DNA of 32,000 nt from Oceanicella sp. SM1341 (GCF_003448965.1 NZ_QRGC01000030.1:6991-38990); one strand, 5' to 3'. Counted from the stretch's first letter, positions 1,353 to 12,796 are shown. The notes: generated by a model not told the origin, from the letters alone. A program made the numbers and translations.

Positions 1353-3344
1353 ATGTCCGGTACCAAGATCCTCTGGGGGCAGATCCTCACGGTCTTTCTG
1401 ATCGTTCTTCTCACCACCTGGGGCGCGACCGAATATGTCGCCTGGAGGCTCGGGTTTCAGGCGCAGCTCGGATCGCCCTGGTTCATCCTGCTGGGCTGGC
1501 CGGTCTATCTGCCGCCGTCCTTCTTCTGGTGGTGGTATGCCTACGATGCCTATGCCCCCGACATCTTCGTCCGCGGCGCCTTCATCGCCGCGTCGGGCGG
1601 TTTCCTCGCCATCGCTGTCGCGATCGGCATGTCGGTCTGGCGCGCACGCGAGGCCAAGAAGGCGGAAACCTATGGCTCGGCGCGTTGGGCAGAGGCGCAG
1701 GAGGTGAAGTCGGCCGGGCTGCTGCGCCCCGATGGCGTGGTGCTCGGGCAATATAATCGTGACTATCTTCGCCACGACGGGCCGGAGCATGTCCTGTGTT
1801 TCGCGCCGACCCGATCAGGCAAGGGCGTCGGTCTCGTCGTCCCGTCGCTGCTGACCTGGCCCGGATCGGCGATCGTCCACGACATCAAGGGTGAGAACTG
1901 GCAGCTCACCTCCGGGTTCAGATCGCGCCACGCCCGCGTGCTCCTGTTTGACCCAACCAACGCCAAATCCGCCGCCTACAATCCGCTGCTCGAAGTGCGG
2001 CGCGGCGAATGGGAAGTGCGCGATGTCCAGAACATCGCCGACATCCTGGTCGACCCCGAAGGCAGCCTCGAGAAGCGAAACCATTGGGAGAAGACCTCTC
2101 ATGCGCTCTTGGTCGGCGCCATCCTGCATGTGCTCTATGCCGAGACGGACAAGACGCTGGCCGGTGTCGCCGCCTTCCTCTCCGACCCAGGGCGGCCAAT
2201 CGAGTCGACGCTGGCCACCATGATGAAGACGGCGCATCTGGGGCAGGGGGGACCGCATCCCGTCATCGCCAGCGCGGCGCGCGAACTGCTCAACAAGTCC
2301 GACAACGAGCGCTCGGGCGTGCTCTCCACGGCCATGTCGTTCCTCGGCCTCTATCGCGATCCTGTGGTGGCCGAAGTTACCCGGCGCTGCGACTGGCGCA
2401 TCGGCGACATCGTGGGCGCAAAAGACCCCACCACGCTCTATCTCGTCGTTCCTCCCTCCGACATCAACCGCACCAAGCCGTTGATCCGCCTGATCCTCAA
2501 TCAGGTGGGCCGTCGACTAACAGAAGATCTGCAGGCGAAAGCGGGCCGCCACCGGCTGCTGCTGATGCTCGACGAGTTTCCGGCGCTCGGCCGGCTCGAC
2601 TTCTTCGAGAGCGCACTCGCCTTCATGGCCGGTTATGGGCTGAAAAGCTTCCTGATCGCGCAATCGCTGAACCAGATCGAGAAGGCCTACGGCGCCAACA
2701 ACTCGATCCTCGACAATTGCCATGTTCGCGTCAGCTTCGCGACCAACGACGAACGCACGGCCAAGCGCGTCTCCGATGCACTCGGCACGGCCACGCAGAT
2801 GAAGGCGATGAAGAACTATGCCGGACACAGGCTCAGCCCCTGGCTCGGGCACCTCATGGTGTCGCGCTCGGAGACCGCGCGGCCGCTGCTCACCCCCGGC
2901 GAAATCATGCAGCTTCCGCCGAGCGACGAGATCGTCATGGTCGCGGGCACACCACCGATCCGGGCGAAGAAGGCCCGCTACTACGAGGACGCGCGCTTCA
3001 GCGAACGCATCTTGCCGCCACCGGCACACAGCGCGCCGAATGAGGGCCGCCCGGATGATTGGACCACGCTTCCATTGCCGGCGCGCCCGGCAGTGGCTGA
3101 GACGAAGGGTGCAACAGTGTCTCAGGACGAGGATACGACCGACTCCGAGCGCCGCCGTCAACCCGAACTCAGCCGGGTGAAGCCGGTGGAAAAGAAGGTA
3201 CCGATCGACAACCCCTTCGAACTGGATGCTGATCGAGACGAGGAGCTCGACGATGCTGCAACGCGCAATCAGCGCATGACCGGGCTCATGCAAGGGGTGG
3301 CGCGGCAGGTCTCGCTTGATCCGAACGACGGCATGGAGCTGTGA
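1353..3344 (+). CDS. traG: Type IV coupling protein TraG (VirD4 family)
   Basis: 663 aa with N-terminal hydrophobic segments. Walker A is APTRSGKGVGLVVPS and Walker B is LLLMLDEFPALG. SD AGGAAAGG lies upstream of the ATG at 1353. Confidence 0.95.
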   Translation: MSGTKILWGQILTVFLIVLLTTWGATEYVAWRLGFQAQLGSPWFILLGWPVYLPPSFFWWWYAYDAYAPDIFVRGAFIAASGGFLAIAVAIGMSVWRAREAKKAETYGSARWAEAQEVKSAGLLRPDGVVLGQYNRDYLRHDGPEHVLCFAPTRSGKGVGLVVPSLLTWPGSAIVHDIKGENWQLTSGFRSRHARVLLFDPTNAKSAAYNPLLEVRRGEWEVRDVQNIADILVDPEGSLEKRNHWEKTSHALLVGAILHVLYAETDKTLAGVAAFLSDPGRPIESTLATMMKTAHLGQGGPHPVIASAARELLNKSDNERSGVLSTAMSFLGLYRDPVVAEVTRRCDWRIGDIVGAKDPTTLYLVVPPSDINRTKPLIRLILNQVGRRLTEDLQAKAGRHRLLLMLDEFPALGRLDFFESALAFMAGYGLKSFLIAQSLNQIEKAYGANNSILDNCHVRVSFATNDERTAKRVSDALGTATQMKAMKNYAGHRLSPWLGHLMVSRSETARPLLTPGEIMQLPPSDEIVMVAGTPPIRAKKARYYEDARFSERILPPPAHSAPNEGRPDDWTTLPLPARPAVAETKGATVSQDEDTTDSERRRQPELSRVKPVEKKVPIDNPFELDADRDEELDDAATRNQRMTGLMQGVARQVSLDPNDGMEL

Positions 3345-3999: not shown

Positions 4000-4989
4000 A
4001 TGGCAGCCTCACATCACAATTCGGAAGGGATCGCTCGAGGCGCGCGGATGCTGCGCACCGCGCTCGGTCCGGCCATCGCGACTTTCCTGGAAGACCCAGG
4101 AGTCGTCGAGGTGATGCTGAACCCGGACGGACGGCTCTGGATCGATCGCCTCTCCGAGGGACTGTCCGATACGGGCGAGCATCTGTCATCGGAGGATGGC
4201 GAACGGATCATCCGTCTTGTCGCCCACCATGTCGGTGCGGAGGTCCATACCGGAAGCCCCCGCGTCTCGGCGGAACTGCCCGGAACGGGAGAGCGGTTCG
4301 AGGGACTTCTGCCGCCAGTCGTGGCGGCGCCGGCCTTCGCCATCCGAAAGCCGGCCGTCGCGGTGTTCACGCTGCTGGACTACGTGGCCGCCGGAATCAT
4401 GAGCGCCGAACAGGCCAATGTTTTGCGCCGCGCCGTCTTCGACCGCGCCAACATCCTCGTCGCAGGCGGCACTTCCACCGGCAAGACGACGCTGACCAAT
4501 GCGCTGCTCGCCGAGGTGGCGAAGACCTCTGATCGCGTCGTCATCATCGAAGATACCCGCGAGTTGCAATGCGCCGCGCCCAACCTTGTCGCCATGCGGA
4601 CCAAGGACGGCGTCGCCTCGCTCTCCGATCTCGTCCGCTCCTCGCTGCGCCTGCGCCCCGACCGAATTCCGGTCGGCGAGGTGCGTGGCGCCGAGGCGCT
4701 GGACCTTCTCAAAGCCTGGGGCACCGGCCATCCCGGCGGCATAGGGACCATCCATGCCGGCAGCGCCATCGGCGCGCTGCGCCGCATGGAACAGCTCATT
4801 CAGGAAGCCGTCGTCATCGTGCCCAGAGCGCTGATCGCCGAGACAATTGACCTCGTGGCGGTGCTCTCCGGCCGCGGTGCCGCGCGCCGGCTCTCCGAAC
4901 TCGCCCGCGTCGAGGGCCTCGGCACGGACGGCGATTACCGCATCGTGCCCGCCACCACTCATCTCCAGCCCGAAGAAGGAACCTCCTAA
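4000..4989 (+). CDS. trbB: Conjugal transfer ATPase TrbB (VirB11 family)
   Basis: 329 aa with Walker [12 protein letters not shown], plus the EDTRELQ and [12 protein letters not shown] motifs typical of VirB11/TrbB secretion ATPases. Confidence 0.95.
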
Positions 4990-5345: not shown

Positions 5346-5626
5346 TGCCGGGCGGTGTAGATCAGGGTGGAGACGTTCCCGGCTATTCGGTCCCGCTGCA
5401 CCGGGCGCTCAGCGAGCCGATCCTGCTTGGCGGCGCACCGCGTGCCATCGCCATCCTGAACGGCACACTCGCCGGAGCGGTGGGTCTCGGACTGCGCCTC
5501 TGGCTCGTCGGCATCGCCATCTGGGCGATCGGGCATTTCGCGGCGGTGTGGGCGGCCAAGCGCGATCCGCTCTTCGTCGAGGTCGGCCGCCGCCATCTGC
5601 GCATTCCCGCGCATCTCACGGTCTGA
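5345..5626 (+). CDS. trbD: TrbD (VirB3 family)
   Basis: 93 aa. The ATG shares one nt with the trbC stop (TGATG). The sequence PLHRALSEPILLGGAPR followed by a hydrophobic hairpin is typical of TrbD. The longer track ORF from 4847 is an upstream extension that overlaps trbB and trbC. Confidence 0.85.
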   Translation: MPGGVDQGGDVPGYSVPLHRALSEPILLGGAPRAIAILNGTLAGAVGLGLRLWLVGIAIWAIGHFAAVWAAKRDPLFVEVGRRHLRIPAHLTV

Positions 5627-5640
5627 GGGGAAGCGCCGCC

Positions 5641-8127
5641 ATGATGAACCTCGCCGAATACCGCAATAGAAACGCCCGTCTCGCCGATTACCTCCCCTGG
5701 GTGGCGCTGGCCGGTTCCGGCATCGTGCTCAACAAGGATGGCAGCTTCCAGCGCACGGCGCGGTTTCGCGGTCCCGATCTGGATTCCGCGGTGCCGGCGG
5801 AGCTGGTCGCGGTCGCGGGCCGTCTCAACAACGCTTTCCGCCGGCTCGGTTCGGGCTGGGCGATCTTCGTCGAGGCGCAGCGCAATCCGGCCGCGGTCTA
5901 CCCCGTCAGCACGTTTCCCGATGCAGCGTCCGCATTGGTCGATGCCGAGCGCAAAGCGGATTTCGAACAGGCGGGGTCACATTTCGAATCTTCGTATTTC
6001 CTGACCTTCACCTGGCTGCCGCCGGCCGAGGACGCCGCCCGCGCCGAGACCTGGCTTTACGAAGGCCGCGAGAAGACCGGCATCGATGCGCACGAAGCGC
6101 TGAACGGCTTCGCCGATCGCACCGACCGGCTGCTCAACCTGATCGAAGCCTTCATGCCGGACTGCCGCTGGCTCGATGACGGCGAGACCCTGACCTACCT
6201 GCATGGCTGCATTTCCACGCAGCGCCATCGCGTCCGTGTCCCCGAGACGCCCATGTATCTTGACGCGCTCTTGGCCGATCAGCCGCTCACGGGCGGGCTG
6301 GAACCGCGTCTGGGATCGGCGCATCTGCGCGTTCTCACAATCACCGGCTTTCCGACTGCGACGACGCCGGGCCTGCTGGACGAGTTGAACCGGCTGGCCT
6401 TTCCCTATCGCTGGTCCACCCGGGCGATCCTGCTTGACAAGAGCGATGCGGTGAAGCTGCTGACGAAGATCCGCCGCCAGTGGTTTGCCAAGCGCAAGTC
6501 CATCGCCGCGATCCTCAAGGAAGTGATGACCAACGAGCAATCCGTGCTCGTGGACACAGATGCCTCCAACAAGGCGGCCGATGCTGATCTCGCGCTGCAG
6601 GAGCTTGGCGCAGACTATGCCGGCATCGCCTATGTCACCGCGACGGTCACGGTGTCCGACGCCGATCCACGCATTGCCGACGAGAAGCTGCGCCTCGTCG
6701 AGAAGGTGATCCAGGGCCGCGACTTCACCGCGATGGCCGAGACCATCAATGCGGTGGACGCTTGGCTCGGCAGTCTACCCGGTCATGTCTATGCCAATGT
6801 CCGGCAACCGCCGATCAGCACTTTGAATCTCGCCCACATGATCCCCCTGAGCGCTGTGTGGGCGGGGCCGGAACGGGGAGGTCCGAGCAGTGATGGGCAT
6901 TTCACAGCGCCCCCGCTGCTCTTCGGCAAGACCGAAGGCTCTACCCCGTTCCGGTTTTCCCTTCATGTCAGCGATGTCGGGCATACGCTCGTCGTCGGCC
7001 CGACCGGCGCGGGCAAGTCCGTGCTGCTGGCGCTTATGGCGCTGCAGTTCCGCCGATATGCCGGTGCCCAGGTCTTTGCCTTCGACTTCGGAGGGTCGAT
7101 CCGTGCCGCCGCGCTCGCCATGGGCGGCGACTGGCACGATCTTGGTGGCGGGCTCAGTGAGGGATCAGAATCTTCCGTCAGCCTGCAGCCGCTCACCCGC
7201 GTCGATGACAGCGCCGAGCGCGCCTGGGCTGCCGACTGGATCGGCGCGATCCTGAAGCGCGAAGGTGTCGCGGTCACGCCCGAGGTGAAGGAGCATCTCT
7301 GGACGGCGCTGACCTCGCTGGCCTCGGCGCCGGTCGAGGAGCGCACCATCACCGGGCTGTCAGTCCTCCTTCAATCCAACGACTTGAAGCAGGCCTTGCG
7401 TCCCTATTGCTTCGGTGGCGCCTGGGGGCGGTTGCTGGATGCCGAAGACGAACATCTGGGCCATTCCACGGTCCAGGCTTTCGAGACGGAAGGGCTGATC
7501 GGGACCGAGGCGGCCCCCGCCGTGCTCGCCTATCTGTTCCACCGGATCGAAGGTCGCCTCGACGGTTCGCCGACGCTGATCATCGTCGATGAAGGCTGGC
7601 TCGCGCTCGATGACGAGGGGTTCGCCGACCAGCTCCGCGAGTGGCTGAAGACCCTTCGCAAGAAGAACGCCTCCGTCATCTTCGCCACCCAGTCGCTGAG
7701 CGACATCGATGGTAGTCCGATCGCGCCGGCGATCATCGAGAGCTGCCCGACCCGGATACTGCTCCCGAACGAACGTGCGATCGAGCCGCAGATCACCGCC
7801 ATCTATCGCCGCTTCGGCCTCAATGACCGCCAGATCGAGATCCTCGCACGGGCCATGCCCAAGCGCGACTACTACTGCCAGTCGCGGCGTGGAAATCGCC
7901 TGTTCGAGCTGGGCCTGTCGGAGGTGGCGCTGTGCCTTTGTGCCGCGTCGTCGCGCCAGCATCAGCAGCGCATCGCCGAGATCCACGCCCGAACCGGCAC
8001 CGACGGCTTCCTCCACGATTGGCTCGCGGAAAACAGCCTCGCCTGGGCGGCCGACATGATCGCCGACCTCACCAACCTCGCGTCCCGGTCTCCCATGCCC
8101 ACCACCAACGAGGAAGTTCCGACATGA
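5641..8127 (+). CDS. trbE: Conjugal transfer ATPase TrbE (VirB4 family)
   Basis: 828 aa counted from ATG 5641 (MMNLAEYRNRNARLADYLPW). Walker A is VVGPTGAGKS and the Walker B-like segment is LIIVDEGW. The position after trbD is conserved. Confidence 0.95.
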   Translation: MMNLAEYRNRNARLADYLPWVALAGSGIVLNKDGSFQRTARFRGPDLDSAVPAELVAVAGRLNNAFRRLGSGWAIFVEAQRNPAAVYPVSTFPDAASALVDAERKADFEQAGSHFESSYFLTFTWLPPAEDAARAETWLYEGREKTGIDAHEALNGFADRTDRLLNLIEAFMPDCRWLDDGETLTYLHGCISTQRHRVRVPETPMYLDALLADQPLTGGLEPRLGSAHLRVLTITGFPTATTPGLLDELNRLAFPYRWSTRAILLDKSDAVKLLTKIRRQWFAKRKSIAAILKEVMTNEQSVLVDTDASNKAADADLALQELGADYAGIAYVTATVTVSDADPRIADEKLRLVEKVIQGRDFTAMAETINAVDAWLGSLPGHVYANVRQPPISTLNLAHMIPLSAVWAGPERGGPSSDGHFTAPPLLFGKTEGSTPFRFSLHVSDVGHTLVVGPTGAGKSVLLALMALQFRRYAGAQVFAFDFGGSIRAAALAMGGDWHDLGGGLSEGSESSVSLQPLTRVDDSAERAWAADWIGAILKREGVAVTPEVKEHLWTALTSLASAPVEERTITGLSVLLQSNDLKQALRPYCFGGAWGRLLDAEDEHLGHSTVQAFETEGLIGTEAAPAVLAYLFHRIEGRLDGSPTLIIVDEGWLALDDEGFADQLREWLKTLRKKNASVIFATQSLSDIDGSPIAPAIIESCPTRILLPNERAIEPQITAIYRRFGLNDRQIEILARAMPKRDYYCQSRRGNRLFELGLSEVALCLCAASSRQHQQRIAEIHARTGTDGFLHDWLAENSLAWAADMIADLTNLASRSPMPTTNEEVPT

Positions 8128-8885
8128 TCCGCACCCGATCCAGCGCCCGGCGCTTCGCCCTGGCGCTTCTCAGCGCGCCCGTTCTTCTGACCCCGATACT
8201 GGCGACGCCCGCCTATGCGATCATCGTGTTCGATCCCTCGAACTACGCACAAAACGTCCTGACGGCGGCGCGCGCGCTCGAACAGATCAACAATCAGATC
8301 ACCTCGCTTCAGAACCAGGCGCAGATGCTGATCAACCAGGCCCGCAACCTCGCGAGCCTTCCGTTTTCCTCGCTGCAACAGCTTCAGCAATCCGTGCAGC
8401 GCACCCAGCAACTTCTCGCCCAAGCGCAGAACATCGCCTACAACGTGCAGCGGATCGATCAGGCGTTTCAGACCAAATACGCCAATGTCTCGATGTCCGC
8501 ATCGGACGCGCAGCTCGTCGCCGATGCCAGAACCCGCTGGCAGAACACCGTGGGCGGCCTGCAGGACGCCATGCGCGTACAGGCAACCGTCGTCGGCAAT
8601 ATCGAGACCAACCGCCAGCAGATGTCGGCGCTGGTGGGCGCGAGCCAGTCAGCGACGGGCGCTCTCCAGGCGACGCAGGCTGGCAACCAGCTTCTCGCCC
8701 TGCAGGCCCAGCAGCTCTCCGACCTCACAGCCGTCATCTCCGCGAATGGTCGCGCGCAGGCCCTGCACGATGCCGAGCAGGCCGCCGCGGCTGAACAGGG
8801 CCGCGAACAGCGTCGCCGCTTCCTGACCCCCGGTTCGGGCTACCAGCCCGGCAACGCCCGGATGTTCCCGGGCAGCGACAGTTGA
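8124..8885 (+). CDS. trbJ: TrbJ (VirB5-like)
   Basis: There is an ATGA overlap with the trbE stop. A signal peptide (LLTPILATPAYA) is followed by a Q/L-rich coiled-coil-like sequence typical of TrbJ. Confidence 0.85.
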   Translation: MIRTRSSARRFALALLSAPVLLTPILATPAYAIIVFDPSNYAQNVLTAARALEQINNQITSLQNQAQMLINQARNLASLPFSSLQQLQQSVQRTQQLLAQAQNIAYNVQRIDQAFQTKYANVSMSASDAQLVADARTRWQNTVGGLQDAMRVQATVVGNIETNRQQMSALVGASQSATGALQATQAGNQLLALQAQQLSDLTAVISANGRAQALHDAEQAAAAEQGREQRRRFLTPGSGYQPGNARMFPGSDS

Positions 8886-8895
8886 GGGCAGGGCG

Positions 8896-9165
8896 ATGGA
8901 CGGCAAGACCCTCGCACGCATCGGCGCCATCGTCTTCGTCGCGGTCGCGATCACCGCCACCGTGATCCAGATGACCCGCAAAGATGCGGTGCCTCCAGCG
9001 CCCGCCGCGTCCTCCGCGCCGACGGCGGACAGGCAAGATCCGCTGAGCGCGGAGCTAACCCGATGCAGCCAGGCCGGAGAAGCCGCCACACATGATCCAG
9101 CCTGCCTTAATGCCTGGGCCGAGAACCGTCGGCGTTTCCTCGGTCACAGCAGCGAAGGGCGCTGA
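8896..9165 (+). CDS. trbK: Putative entry-exclusion protein TrbK-alt
   Basis: 89 aa. The N-terminal TM segment is LARIGAIVFVAVAITATVI and the C-terminal motif is CLNAWAENRRRFLG. It sits between trbJ and trbL. Confidence 0.6.
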   Translation: MDGKTLARIGAIVFVAVAITATVIQMTRKDAVPPAPAASSAPTADRQDPLSAELTRCSQAGEAATHDPACLNAWAENRRRFLGHSSEGR

Positions 9166-9229
9166 ACGTGAAAGTAGAGATGAAGCGCTCCATCGCCTTC
9201 CGGAGACGAGTTTCTCTATCCCTCTTCCC

Positions 9230-9263
9230 GAACCGGACATGCAGGTTTCCAAGCATCCGGCTC
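9230..9263 (-). ncRNA. Group II intron domain V
   Basis: The minus strand reads GAGCCGGATGCTTGGAAACCTGCATGTCCGGTTC. This is a 34-nt hairpin with the AGC triad, a G-U wobble, a 2-nt bulge and a GAAA-type apical loop. Confidence 0.9.
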
Positions 9264-9299
9264 TCCATGCACGGGCGGTCGTCAGCCCGTGGGTGTGCC

Positions 9300-10826
9300 T
9301 CAAACGCGTCTGAGGCGCGCGAACGCAGTCCAGAAGTCAAGCAGGGTTTCCCGATGCCTGTTTTCCCATCTTGCGTTCCATCCGTTCGGTTTCTCGATTC
9401 GCTGTTCCGGGTAACGCATGGTTCCTCCGTCAGTGAAGAACCGCAGGCGTCTGGACCCTTCGGTCCATTGCCGTCGTTTTCCGGGGGCGCTGAGATGATA
9501 GCGGCGCCGCAGGGTCGGCCAACCCGCATTGCCGTGCTTCATCTTCAACCAGCGCCCGACGCGCTGCCATATCCAGAAGTCGAGATGGCTGAACCGACCG
9601 TGCGCGCCTGTGGCGTAACGGTAATAGTTCCTCCACCCCGTGATGACCGGATTGAGCCTGTCGATGACGTAGGCAAGGTCGCGTCCCGTGGGGATGCCCC
9701 TCACCATGACCTTGATCTTGTGGCGCAGGTCGTTCAGCTTTCCCTTCGGGATGAAGAGATTGCCGACCCATCGGCCTGTCCGACAGGCTCTGGTCTGCGC
9801 CACCCGGTAGCCGAGGAAGTCGAAGCCTTCCCTGACATCGGTGATCCGGGTCTTTTCCATCGACAGTTCCATGCGAAGCTCCGTCTTCAGGAACTCCGCC
9901 AGCGCGAGCTTTTCCGCTTCCGCCTGCTCCCGCGTGCCATCCACGAGAACGACGAAGTCGTCCGCGTATCGCACCATGTAGAGCACCGGCCGACCCCTCT
10001 TGTGGTCTCTGACCCTTCGGGCCGCCGGATTGATGCTCGGTTCGCGGGGGCGGCCTGTCCACCATCCATACCGCTCGTCGATGGCTGTCAGGTAGATGTT
10101 CGACAGCATCGGCGAGATGATCCCGCCTTGCGGCGAGCCGGTGACGGGGTGGCGTTCGGTCCCTTCGACCATCACACCGGCTTTCAGGAACGAGAGGATC
10201 AGCGCCAGCACCTTGCGGTCGCCGATGCGTTTCCGGACCCGCTCCATCATGACGTGATGATCGATGGCGTCGAAGCAGCCCTTGATGTCTCCCTCTATGA
10301 CATAGCGATAGACCGAGGGTCCGCGCTTTGTCGGGTGAAGGAACCTCTGGATTCTTGCCAGAGCATCGTGGGTGCTTCGACCGCGCCGGAACCCGTAGGA
10401 GGTCGGATAGAAGTCCGCCTCGAAGATAGGCTCCAGGACCAGCTTCAAAGCCATCTGCACCAGACGATCGACCAACGTTGGAATGCCGAGTGGCCGGAAC
10501 TGCCCCGGTTTGCCGGGCTTTGGGATAAGCCGCTGCCTGACCGGTTGGGGACGATAGGTTCCGTTGCGAAGCACCTCGCGTATCTCATCGAGGAACCCTG
10601 CTGCGCCACCGGGACGCTGTTCGACCATGCGCCGCGTCACCCCGTCGGTGCCGGGTGTCTGGCTGCCCCGATTACCGGACAGCCTTCGCCACGCCTCCTC
10701 AAGGAATCGGCGGTCGCATACGAGATTGAACAGACCAGCGAAGACCTTGTCGGGGTCTTCGTTGCTCCACCGATACAGCTTGCGCTGCATGTCGAGGACG
10801 AACAAGATATTCATCTCGTTGGACAT
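9300..10826 (-). CDS. Group II intron reverse transcriptase/maturase (no En domain)
   Basis: 508 aa from the ATG at 10826, preceded by AGGAGG with a 7 nt spacer. RT motifs present: IPKPGKPGQFRPLGIPTLVDRLVQ, DIKGCFD, GSPQGGIISPMLSNIYL, RYADDFVVL. The maturase X motif is ITGWRNYYRYA. The C-terminal ~90 aa contain no Cys and no HNH signature. Confidence 0.93.
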   Translation of the reverse strand: MSNEMNILFVLDMQRKLYRWSNEDPDKVFAGLFNLVCDRRFLEEAWRRLSGNRGSQTPGTDGVTRRMVEQRPGGAAGFLDEIREVLRNGTYRPQPVRQRLIPKPGKPGQFRPLGIPTLVDRLVQMALKLVLEPIFEADFYPTSYGFRRGRSTHDALARIQRFLHPTKRGPSVYRYVIEGDIKGCFDAIDHHVMMERVRKRIGDRKVLALILSFLKAGVMVEGTERHPVTGSPQGGIISPMLSNIYLTAIDERYGWWTGRPREPSINPAARRVRDHKRGRPVLYMVRYADDFVVLVDGTREQAEAEKLALAEFLKTELRMELSMEKTRITDVREGFDFLGYRVAQTRACRTGRWVGNLFIPKGKLNDLRHKIKVMVRGIPTGRDLAYVIDRLNPVITGWRNYYRYATGAHGRFSHLDFWIWQRVGRWLKMKHGNAGWPTLRRRYHLSAPGKRRQWTEGSRRLRFFTDGGTMRYPEQRIEKPNGWNARWENRHRETLLDFWTAFARLRRV

Positions 10827-11464
10827 GGGTCCACCTCCTGCCTGCTCGCTGTATCCACTGCCTTCCTTCGCCATGTGGACGGCTTTCCCGTCCCCGGACT
10901 ACTACGAAGGCTCCGCCCCTCACCATCGCGGTCGCTGGTCGCTTCAGCCATCCGGGGTCCGACTGTTCCGGAAGCGACGGCAAGGTTCTTAGGTTCCGTA
11001 ACTGATCTCTCGCCTGCTTTAGGCGCCGACTTTACCCCGTGTGGATTCCGACCCCGATACCGCGCAAGCTCATATCGAGGCTGGCGCACGGCACGCCGCA
11101 CACCCCCAGCCCATGTGTCCATAGCACGGGCCAACGCTCCACAAATCTGCGGTTCGCACCACAGACCGACCCGCCGACTTCCGAGTTGGCGTGTCTCCGC
11201 GCGTAACGAGGCGTCCGCCATCGGTTCGGTTTCCCTCGCCATGGCAGGCTCGCTGGCCGGACCACGTACGGGATCGGAAGTCCCCGCCCGTCCGGCTTTG
11301 ATGGGTTCTGCTGATTTATGGCTCCCCGGAAGCACCCGGTTTGCCTCACCCATCGGCTTGTCACCGCATGTTGCGCCACACGGTGCGCGGGGCCTTTCAT
11401 CCCGCGAGATCAGAAACGACAATAAAATCAAAGCACTCCTTTCTTTGATCAGGACCTAACGCAC

Positions 11465-12796
11465 ATGGGCAACACCGGCGTCATCGATCACTTCCTCGAT
11501 GTCTTTACCCGCTACATCGACGGCGGCTTCGGTCTGCTTGGCGGCGAGGTCGGTTTCATCGCCACCACGCTGATCGTCATCGACGTGACGCTGGCCGCGC
11601 TCTTCTGGTCCTGGGGCGCCGACGACGACATCATGGCGCGGCTCGTCAAGAAGACGCTTTTCGTCGGTGTTTTCGCCTACATCATCTCCAACTGGAACAA
11701 TCTGGCCCGGATCGTTTTCGAAAGCTTCGCGGGGCTCGGCCTGAAGGCGTCCGGCACGGGCTTTACCACGGCCCAGCTTCTCCAGCCCGGCAAGGTCGCC
11801 CAGACCGGCCTTGATGCGGGGAGGCCGCTGCTCGATTCCATCTCGAACCTGATGGGCTATTGGTCCTTCTTCGAGAATTTCATCCAGATCGCCTGCATGT
11901 TCTTCGCCTGGGCGCTGGTGCTCTTGGCCTTCTTCATCCTCGCCATCCAGCTCTTCGTCACGCTGATCGAGTTCAAGCTGACGACGCTCGCCGGCTTCGT
12001 GCTGATCCCCTTCGGTCTCTTCGGCAAGTCCGCCTTCATGGCCGAGCGGGTGCTCGGTAACGTCATCTCCTCGGGCATCAAGGTTCTGGTGCTCGCCGTT
12101 ATCATCGGTATCGGCTCGACACTCTTTTCCGAATTCGCCGCAGGGTTTGGCGGCGCGACACCGACCATCGACGATGCGATGGCGATCGTGCTGGCAGCCC
12201 TTTCACTGCTTGGCCTCGGCATTTTCGGCCCCGGTATCGCAACGGGGCTCGTCTCCGGCGGTCCCCAGCTTGGCGCCGGATCGGCGATCGGCAGCGGTCT
12301 TGCTGCCGGCGGCATGGTCGTCGCGGGCGGCGCGGCGCTCGGGGCTGCGGCCTCCGGTGGCGCATCTCTCCTTGGCGGAGCGGCGGCAGCCGCCCGTGGT
12401 GGGGCCGCGCTCGCGGGCGGGGCATCCACCGCCTACAGCCTCGGCGCCGCCGGACAGACCGGCGCGTCCGCCGTTGCATCTGGCCTCGGCAATGTCGCCA
12501 GCACCGGCGCATCGCAGGCTGGATCTGCCTTGGTCAGCCCGCTCAGACGCGCCGCGGGATCGATGCGCGGCAGCTTCGAGGCCGGTGGGCGTGCCGTCTC
12601 CGGCGAAGCCGCTGCCGATGAACGTGCATCGGCCGCAGCCGCAGCCTCATCTGCGCCCGACAGCCCGCCTGCCTGGGCAAAGCGCATGAAGCGCTCCCAA
12701 GCCATGTCCCACGGGATGCAGGTCGCAGCCCATTCCGTCCGCAGCGGCGACAGCCACGGCAGCGGCTCTTCCGTCAACACCTCCGAAAGCGACTGA
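11465..12796 (+). CDS. trbL: TrbL (VirB6 family)
   Basis: 443 aa. The N-terminus GVIDHFLDVFTRYIDGGFGLLGGEVGFIATTLIVIDVTLA is typical of TrbL. It has multiple TM segments and a Gly/Ala-rich C-terminal tail. Confidence 0.93.
   Translation: MGNTGVIDHFLDVFTRYIDGGFGLLGGEVGFIATTLIVIDVTLAALFWSWGADDDIMARLVKKTLFVGVFAYIISNWNNLARIVFESFAGLGLKASGTGFTTAQLLQPGKVAQTGLDAGRPLLDSISNLMGYWSFFENFIQIACMFFAWALVLLAFFILAIQLFVTLIEFKLTTLAGFVLIPFGLFGKSAFMAERVLGNVISSGIKVLVLAVIIGIGSTLFSEFAAGFGGATPTIDDAMAIVLAALSLLGLGIFGPGIATGLVSGGPQLGAGSAIGSGLAAGGMVVAGGAALGAAASGGASLLGGAAAAARGGAALAGGASTAYSLGAAGQTGASAVASGLGNVASTGASQAGSALVSPLRRAAGSMRGSFEAGGRAVSGEAAADERASAAAAASSAPDSPPAWAKRMKRSQAMSHGMQVAAHSVRSGDSHGSGSSVNTSESD

Follow-up and report, generated by a model that had tools for sequence, protein, structure and literature searches.

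An antisense-resident group II intron with a stop-free reverse frame at the trbK-trbL junction, and its possible role as a ribosome relay

A stretch of 32,000 nt from Oceanicella sp. SM1341 (GCF_003448965.1 NZ_QRGC01000030.1:6991-38990), the window of this analysis, with coordinates counted from its first letter, carries a P-type conjugation operon that is interrupted by a complete group II intron. The intron is inserted in antisense orientation directly before the start codon of trbL. The operon mRNA carries the intron backwards, therefore it cannot be spliced out. In the operon direction the antisense strand of the intron forms one open reading frame (ORF) that covers 2292 of its 2297 nt, in register 0 with the gene for the reverse transcriptase (RT). 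Comparison with related introns supports well that selection holds this frame open, in the RT gene and in the non-coding ribozyme alike. We consider it somewhat probable that the intron is ambigrammatic, with a translated antisense strand that relays ribosomes over the insertion and avoids polarity; anatomy, homing and selection are shown by sequence comparison, and translation, coupling and the anti-polarity benefit are proposed on that basis. A wider claim may hold or fail with equal probability: that an intron lineage resident in antisense in conjugation and phage operons evolved a stop-free reverse frame through RT gene and ribozyme that lets ribosomes relay across the insertion, and that selection for translatability itself is thereby seen for the first time in a DNA element of bacteria and in the gene of a catalytic RNA.

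The operon-strand frame is free of stops from 9111 to 11456, with a TAA before it (9108-9110) and a TAA after it (11457-11459), while the other two frames of this strand contain 27 and 28 stops over the same span. The first-pass annotation, a description made from the sequence alone, had reported this frame with its GTG at 9168, and ORF listing and frame count found it again; the terminal TAA indeed lies 5 nt before the trbL ATG at 11465. Three of the distances given there were corrected: the spacer between the trbK TGA (9163-9165) and the GTG measures 2 nt (AC) and not 3 nt, the GAAGGG motif is located 8 nt and not 7 nt upstream of the GTG, and the intron has a length of 2297 nt in place of 2291 nt, its 3' end being at 9168 and not at 9174. 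Frame and RT gene share their codon boundaries, so that an antisense stop would appear in the RT gene as TTA, CTA or TCA; the 45 Leu and 18 Ser codons of the window's RT gene include no such codon. The RT relatives in the database are mostly 508 aa long and start at an ATG behind AGGAGG, thus the true RT start is probably M17 of the longest ORF (window 10826). With this start, the non-coding share of the antisense frame amounts to 132 + 630 nt.

One alternative explanation is chance or base composition: a GC-rich shadow ORF (pseudo-ambigram) opposite a gene with a high GC content at third codon positions (GC3), running on through the ribozyme and inherited by the relatives. The mimicry of ambigrams by extreme GC3 bias is known, according to the accessible part of PMC13262655. 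In the window the stops of the frame correspond to rare codons, the RT gene has a GC3 of 0.76, and, given the codon usage found in genes of the window, the RT part alone is expected to be stop-free in antisense with P ~0.17. The non-coding part speaks against chance. Dinucleotide shuffles of its 254 codons were open in 0.85 % of trials, and shuffles that preserved the codon positions kept the 5' part open in 0.7 %, the 3' part in 24 % and the entire frame in 0 of 20,000 cases, with a mean of 15.6 stops. The first-pass annotation had suggested such shuffling as a control, and a shuffled intron rarely keeps the frame open. For the window sequence alone the joint probability is ~1e-3, which is unusual, yet one such case could arise in a large scan.

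Relatives of the intron (L numbers) were gathered by scans of species genomes and metagenomes and by RT protein look-ups. The RT-register antisense frame was open over 98-100 % of the intron in L101, L001, L002, L006 and L181-L198, and open introns shared 65-92 % nucleotide identity in pairwise comparison. A reverse ORF codon-aligned with the RT gene over nearly the whole element was present also in 12 relatives, and an ORF listing on seven of the open loci yielded antisense ORFs of 721-890 aa. Thirteen introns were aligned over the non-coding ribozyme, with a tree length of 1.77 substitutions per site. In the 5' interior, from nt 46 to the RT start, no antisense-stop site occurred in the RT register, in contrast to 9 distinct sites in the second and 16 in the third frame; the parsimony changes numbered 0, 12 and 28, respectively. 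For 25 interior sites distributed at random among three frames, the probability of none in the RT register is (2/3)^25, ~4e-5. The terminal 45 nt had no such depletion (4, 4 and 5 sites). Interior stops were absent from the 5' ribozyme and RT parts of all 13 introns, and a single 3' interior site was present in L197, 38 nt from the 3' end. Indels shift L002, L101 and L006 out of phase with the window intron over ~50-300 aligned columns, and each of these introns is open in its own register. Because the frame stays open across phase-shifting indels, the conserved property, judged by the alignment, is openness and not a peptide.

Codon choice in the RT genes of the 13 introns has the same signature. 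CTA was used in 0 of 544 CTN codons, TCA in 0 of 144 TCN codons, and TTA was absent versus 49 TTG, although other codons ending in A are common (GTA, ACA, GCA, CCA, GGA and CGA contribute 7-24 % to their codon families) and non-open relatives use the avoided codons: in seven of these, TCA accounts for 13.8 % of TCN codons, and CTA and TTA occur four times each. On the RT tree the open state requires at least three changes, as it is found in a clade of ten (100/99 support) and in L002 and L006, each of them placed beside a non-open relative. Non-open relatives at a similar GC content (59-64 %) contain 3-9 stops. Intermediate states exist: L205 has one interior stop (intron nt 221), L203 and L204 have two (nt 415 and 1975) and L007 has three; none or one of the interior stops of L205 and L203/L204 lies in the RT part. 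The nearly open frames of L205 and L203/L204 suggest a recent loss or an incomplete gain.

Composition gains some weight from the distant relatives (n = 118, mostly actinobacterial, GC content 63-70 %), in which 15 introns had no stop opposite the RT gene and seven of these also had none in the 540 nt upstream. The seven introns (L021, L030, L037, L043, L046, L069 and L109) are mostly from Actinomycetota, with ~42-49 % RT identity and a GC content of 63-67 %; about three would be expected if the two parts were independent, and both selection and GC content are possible causes. Among the 13 aligned introns, the depletion of stop sites, the tolerance of indels, the codon avoidance and the repeated trait changes on the tree argue together for selection, and chance or composition is hardly credible as the explanation of the frame. 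The statement of the first-pass annotation that the frame could equally be chance is thus rejected, and the possibility it raised, of a frame that is more than a GC-rich shadow ORF, is borne out: the comparison with other copies, which it had proposed, revealed a frame kept open across a diverged intron clade, the ribozyme part included.

Sense-strand coding through domains I-III was considered as the cause of the periodicity and was rejected, since the RT-register sense frame has 9-16 stops there (11 in the window). In the sense frame +1 the 13 introns have only 0-3 stops over these domains. A sense-strand ORF of 206 aa over domains I-III was noticed in the window (10811-11431, - strand) and in L182, L184, L186 and L193 (at 2396-3016, + strand), and is annotated as a gene in several assemblies. 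This ORF is probably a by-product or remnant of the avoidance of antisense stops and not a gene. T is depleted at position 1 mod 3 in the ribozyme part, also in the non-open L102 and L007.

A conserved open frame might also encode a functional protein of ~760 aa as a second intron gene. The length of the ORF, its conserved openness and the conservation of the in-frame ATGs at +12 and +99 are in line with this. The predicted product is rich in A, R, P, L and S, as expected from the reverse of a GC-rich gene. It matched no Pfam family, and a comparison with 5.8 billion predicted proteins in the size range 419-1336 aa brought up no homologue, a negative result that is uninformative by itself because gene callers choose the RT strand. 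The different lineages read portions of the ribozyme in different frames, so that the peptide is not conserved there, and the ends vary, some of the ORFs of 721-890 aa starting in the flank or overlapping the next gene. The analogous reverse ORF of narnaviruses has likewise been judged to be non-coding with regard to function, as far as the accessible part of PMC8155312 goes. A functional protein is very improbable.

The position of the frame relative to the operon depends on the ends of the intron. The element was delimited to 9168-11464 by the 3' end shared with relatives, by the end of the Rfam Intron_gpII match at 9168 and by the empty site of pCHQ1. Relatives at other sites share the intron 3' end and then diverge, reading ...CTACTCTAC or ...CTACTTTCAC in intron sense; by comparison with these and with the empty site, the window intron ends with ...CTACTTTCAC at 9168. 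On the - strand the intron begins with GTGCG (11464-11460), and its last three bases, read in antisense, give the GTG at 9168. Four copies at other trb operons have the same GTGAAAGTAGAG (operon strand; GTGAAAG, or CTTTCAC in intron sense) directly after unrelated flanks, thus GTGAAA is intron-borne. Removal of the intron in silico leaves TGA-AC-ATGGGC, and the intron-less homologue on pCHQ1 reads TAG-GC-ATGGGGAAC (TAG-GC-ATGGGG), with an equal spacer of 2 nt. A distant search with trbL matched 176 plasmid records; among the 25 alignments listed, nearly all begin at the ATG, and when the protein is read from this ATG, its match to the TrbL profile NF010449 begins at residue 1. The first-pass annotation had placed the former trbL start at the GTG (MKMGNTG). 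The intron-borne GTGAAA, the empty site of pCHQ1, where a stop, 2 nt and an ATG follow each other, and the NF010449 alignment rule this out. On the evidence of these sequences, GAAGGG served as the Shine-Dalgarno sequence of trbL before the insertion, and the insertion put the intron-borne GTG exactly at the position of the former trbL ATG, 8 nt behind this motif.

The copies at the same site preserve this arrangement in part. GGAG, AGGAG or GAGGA is located 8-9 nt before the junction, and in the window, L186, L190 and L192 the first three antisense bases of the intron are the GTG start of the antisense ORF, with a GGAG-like sequence 8-9 nt ahead of it. This GTG follows the trbK stop after 2 nt (window, L192), follows the stop of the upstream gene after 11 nt (L186) or overlaps with the trbK stop in a GTGA (L190). 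An in-frame ATG is found at +11/12 in most copies and at +98/99 in all; in the window these are the ATGs at 9180 and 9267, which are conserved in relatives. At the other end, every trbL-site copy closes the frame shortly ahead of trbL, with a TAA 5 nt or a TGA 16 nt from the start codon, beside an AGGAC from the intron 5' end; in the window AGGAC and TAA are both formed by the intron 5' end, GTGCGTTAGGTCCT. In sequence terms, the geometry of the junctions is what a ribosome relay or an anti-polarity device needs.

A long untranslated C-rich insert in an operon is expected to be polar by Rho-dependent termination, and the antisense RNA of the intron contains C and G in fractions of 0.33 and 0.285. 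The lineage homes antisense to the base before the trbL start, sister lineages homing upstream of relaxase, capsid and other mobile-element genes, and selection keeps the antisense frame clear, with no CTA, TTA or TCA in the RT gene and an open frame also over ~770 nt of non-coding ribozyme. In the proposed mechanism, ribosomes that end trbK, or that load at the former trbL Shine-Dalgarno sequence, would initiate at the GTG or an ATG of the intron 3' edge, translate ~760 junk codons across the intron, terminate 5-16 nt before the trbL start beside the AGGAC and reinitiate at trbL. A translated bridge in place of 2.3 kb of naked C-rich RNA would prevent Rho-dependent polarity and mRNA decay, so that trbL, trbF, trbG and trbI would be expressed and the conjugative element carrying the intron would stay able to transfer. 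The first-pass annotation had proposed such a bridge. Its geometry is now seen in the sequences, i.e. a start behind the former trbL Shine-Dalgarno sequence and 2 nt past the trbK stop, and a frame end 5 or 16 nt before trbL; the translation of the frame, the Rho polarity and the reinitiation at trbL keep the status of a proposal.

Several observations weigh against a relay. The start contexts differ: the GTG at the junction is missing from 5 of the 9 trbL-site copies, in which initiation would have to use the ATG at +11/12, ~20 nt from the Shine-Dalgarno sequence. Copies at relaxase sites have no upstream gene to couple from, and in L001 the antisense frame overlaps the downstream gene by 101 nt, without a stop before it. 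Within the terminal 45 nt the open frame has no excess of stops over the other two, and it may be incidental that the frame ends near trbL. An antisense lifestyle does not require the open frame, since some antisense relatives just upstream of genes are not open: L102, L199, L202 and L206 have 7-8 stops, L203 has two and L205 has one. A search of sequencing runs revealed no RNA run with the intron sequence, only metagenomic DNA runs with partial shares.

Some of these points would be accommodated by a benefit centred on the intron itself. Ribosomes on the abundant operon-derived antisense RNA may block its pairing with the intron sense RNA, and with it double-stranded RNA, RNase III attack and hindered folding or splicing, or may shield it, a role that has been put forward for ambigrammatic narnaviruses. 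The frame is open in the relaxase-site copies that have no upstream gene for coupling and in copies inside a gene (L002, lytic-transglycosylase-like by a motif read by eye), and stops near the downstream start codon show no statistical enrichment. In narnaviruses there is a precedent for translation itself being of importance (PMC8316113). The start of the ORF exactly behind the former trbL Shine-Dalgarno sequence and the residence in intact, presumably functional operons are left unexplained. We know of no bacterial precedent for a shielding of antisense RNA by ribosomes. An intron-centred benefit as the explanation is rather unlikely, although it is compatible with the operon-centred one.

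A further way out of polarity would be an outward promoter inside the intron that drives the downstream genes, in which case the open frame would be irrelevant to operon expression. This is the solution of the group IIC-attC intron S.ma.I2, which lies antisense in an integron cassette array, where transcription from Pc is blocked and the next cassette is expressed from Pout (PMC3001079). No promoter-like site was detected on the + strand of 8800-11900 with an E. coli-type sigma-70 consensus, which is insensitive for alphaproteobacterial promoters; the scan, which bears on the separate trbL promoter named in the first-pass annotation, is weak evidence against such a promoter inside the intron, and this limit counts against the relay. 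An outward promoter does not explain the selection for an open frame, and we regard it as improbable. The only promoter-like site of the region was on the - strand inside the RT gene (9522-9495). Hairpins resembling intrinsic terminators were not found on either strand of 8800-11900, with 2.6 expected from shuffles.

The lineage is, by the distribution of its copies, an actively and site-specifically homing one. All copies found for six RT clusters (79-91 % identity) lie antisense with the intron 5' end abutting the ATG or GTG of trbL, in intact operons and with trbK or trbJ/DUF4141 on the other side. The carriers are, by name, Bradyrhizobium, Sphingopyxis, Mesorhizobium, Methylocapsa and Sphingomonas, besides metagenomes. 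The identical junction, the base before the trbL start, was found in at least nine diverged trb operons. L195 and L196 are on one Sphingomonas chromosome, with introns of 100 % identity in trb operons, respectively trbL genes, of only 75 % identity, which points to a very recent homing inside one genome. In all pairs but one the introns were more alike (79-92 % identity) than their surroundings, for which the values were 61-75 % in trbL and 45-64 % in the upstream flank. The shared site cannot stem from vertical co-divergence alone, as the intron identity is far above the flank identity and identical copies occur in diverged operons.

Other sites have been occupied in a similar manner. L001 and L197 are antisense and 11-14 nt upstream of a MobA/MobL relaxase gene, L006 is antisense in the gap that separates a prohead protease gene from the major capsid gene, whose ATG follows after 12 nt, L009 is antisense upstream of trbI, and L199, L202, L203 and L205 are antisense upstream of DUF736 or other small genes. 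At an RT identity of at least 59 %, most of the relatives examined are antisense to the neighbour gene (trbL, relaxase, capsid, trbI, DUF736, UCP036055), with the 5' end 0-14 nt upstream of the start codon where this was measured. From these positions, target recognition seems to rely on the conserved codons at the beginning of a gene, with the insertion point immediately outside the gene. A naive search for exon-binding site 1, as the exact complement of the last six exon bases, gave in the window an ATGGGC match that sits in a hairpin. A plasmid search for near-identity to the intron retrieved partial, distant matches only, and of 401 scanned genomes from the order to which the L001 genome belongs, only two had the intron.

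By its domains the element is a mobile group II intron without endonuclease. Profile searches found no HNH/En (endonuclease) family in the 508-aa RT protein, placing it in an En-less lineage; the protein scores 339 bits with TIGR04416 (cut-off 300), its translation contains YADD, and its closest solved structures are 6ME0, 5G2X and 6AR1. RmInt1 of Sinorhizobium meliloti is a mobile group II intron of this kind, with an endonuclease-less RT/maturase (accessible parts of PMC1802570 and PMC4181065). The window intron shares with RmInt1-type introns, as far as these parts describe them, the 5' GUGCG, domains V and VI, the RT and maturase ORF in domain IV, the lack of the En domain, the site-specific homing into mobile genetic elements and the spread with conjugative DNA. 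It differs from them by its antisense position in an operon, where it is unspliceable from the host mRNA, and by the whole antisense strand being one ORF. Group IIC-attC introns such as S.ma.I2 share the bottom-strand homing, the antisense position in an operon-like array and the transcription problem for downstream genes (PMC3001079). Their rescue is the Pout promoter, whereas the window intron has a conserved stop-free frame and no such promoter was detected; its target is the trbK/trbL junction, with no attC or integron context around it, and it is larger and apparently of non-IIC type, with a 5' region of 638 nt and an intron-encoded protein of 508 aa.

In its sequence signature the intron matches ambigrammatic narnaviruses, in which the reverse ORF has no homology and its translation itself is thought to be functional. 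As in Culex narnavirus 1 and its relatives, a near-full-length reverse ORF is in codon register with the polymerase gene, CUA, UUA and UCA are avoided, and openness is selected and polymorphic among relatives (PMC8316113; in their accessible parts, PMC8155312 and 10.1101/761890). Unlike these viruses, the window intron is a DNA-borne bacterial retroelement, and its frame extends over ~770 nt of non-coding ribozyme as well; ribosomes would here translate the transcript of a host operon, and the likely benefit would be the expression of flanking genes of the host element. With translationally coupled genes the intron has in common the close stop and start, 2 nt apart or in a GTGA overlap upstream and 5-16 nt apart downstream; unlike in ordinary coupling, the relay would pass through a 2.3-kb ORF without a product of its own value that is carried by an inserted element. 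In the open-access literature we found no account of a group II intron with an antisense ORF over its full length, and none of an intron at trbK/trbL.

The tolerance of bacteria towards group II introns is usually put down to splicing or to insertion away from genes. In contrast, a successful, homing lineage sits here unspliceable inside essential transfer operons. A translated bridge, if true, would be a new way for a selfish element to limit its own cost and polarity, by translation and not by splicing or an outward promoter, and ambigrams, so far a matter of a few RNA viruses, would be found in bacterial retroelements too. A structured ribozyme would then be able to bear a reading-frame constraint on its complement over ~600 nt, and neither for a DNA element of bacteria nor for the gene of a catalytic RNA would selection for translatability itself have a precedent. 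For annotation, such introns need not mean a dead operon. The operon offers a natural system for Rho polarity and long-range translational coupling that is easily mutated, since RT-synonymous stops are available, and suggests a design rule for non-polar antisense targetron insertions.

The features of the window are compiled in the table. All of its listed tra and trb genes are intact.

Table. Conjugation genes, intron parts and initiation signals in the 32,000-nt window
Feature	Position	Strand	Remarks
traG	1353-3344	+	P-type conjugation operon
trbB	4000-4989	+	P-type conjugation operon
trbE	5548-8127	+	P-type conjugation operon
trbJ	7932-8885	+	P-type conjugation operon
trbK (entry-exclusion TrbK-alt)	8896-9165	+	PF20084, E 2e-36; TIGR04360, 96.5 bits; TGA 9163-9165
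GAAGGG	9154-9159	+	Shine-Dalgarno-like, 8 nt upstream of GTG 9168; read from the sequence
Group II intron	9168-11464	-	2297 nt, complete, in reverse orientation to the trb genes; inserted behind the 2-nt trbK-trbL spacer, directly before the trbL start codon
Ribozyme domains V-VI	9168-9265	-	Rfam RF00029 Intron_gpII, 54.9 bits (cut-off 40), model positions 1-77 of 77
RT/maturase	9300-10826	-	508 aa from M17; longest ORF up to 10874; PF00078 (RVT_1) and PF08388 (GIIM)
Ribozyme domains I-III and IVa	10827-11464	-	638 nt, non-coding; from the alignment of relatives
Antisense ORF	9168-11459	+	763 codons, GTG start, codon-aligned with the RT gene
AGGAC	11451-11455	+	Shine-Dalgarno-like, 9 nt before the trbL ATG, then TAA 11457-11459; read from the sequence
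trbL (VirB6-like)	11465-12796	+	Intact; PF04610; NF010449, 704 bits, 1-443 aligned to 1-442 of 443
trbF, trbG, trbI	downstream of trbL to 15772	+	Intact

Minor observations were made on individual relatives. The genome of L002 (Phyllobacterium) has at least three copies with a homologous 3' flank (L090, L092 and L094), antisense reading ...AMGLMQIMPDTWAGLRARYRLGRDP; these seem to sit inside a VirB1/SLT-like gene and not in an intergenic position, judged by eye from a lytic-transglycosylase-like motif in the sequence. Pfam searches with the flanking ORFs of L102, L090, L094 and L105 and with a 40-aa ORF of L101 gave no match. The trbL-site copy L101 starts with CTGCG in place of GTGCG (1912-1916), a change of intron position 1 that either reflects an error of the assembly or could be harmful to splicing. 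In genome G066, a relative with 76 % nucleotide identity (L099/L100) is split near intron nt 1509 by an insertion of ~1.9 kb, which is weakly similar to the RT region and may be a nested retroelement.

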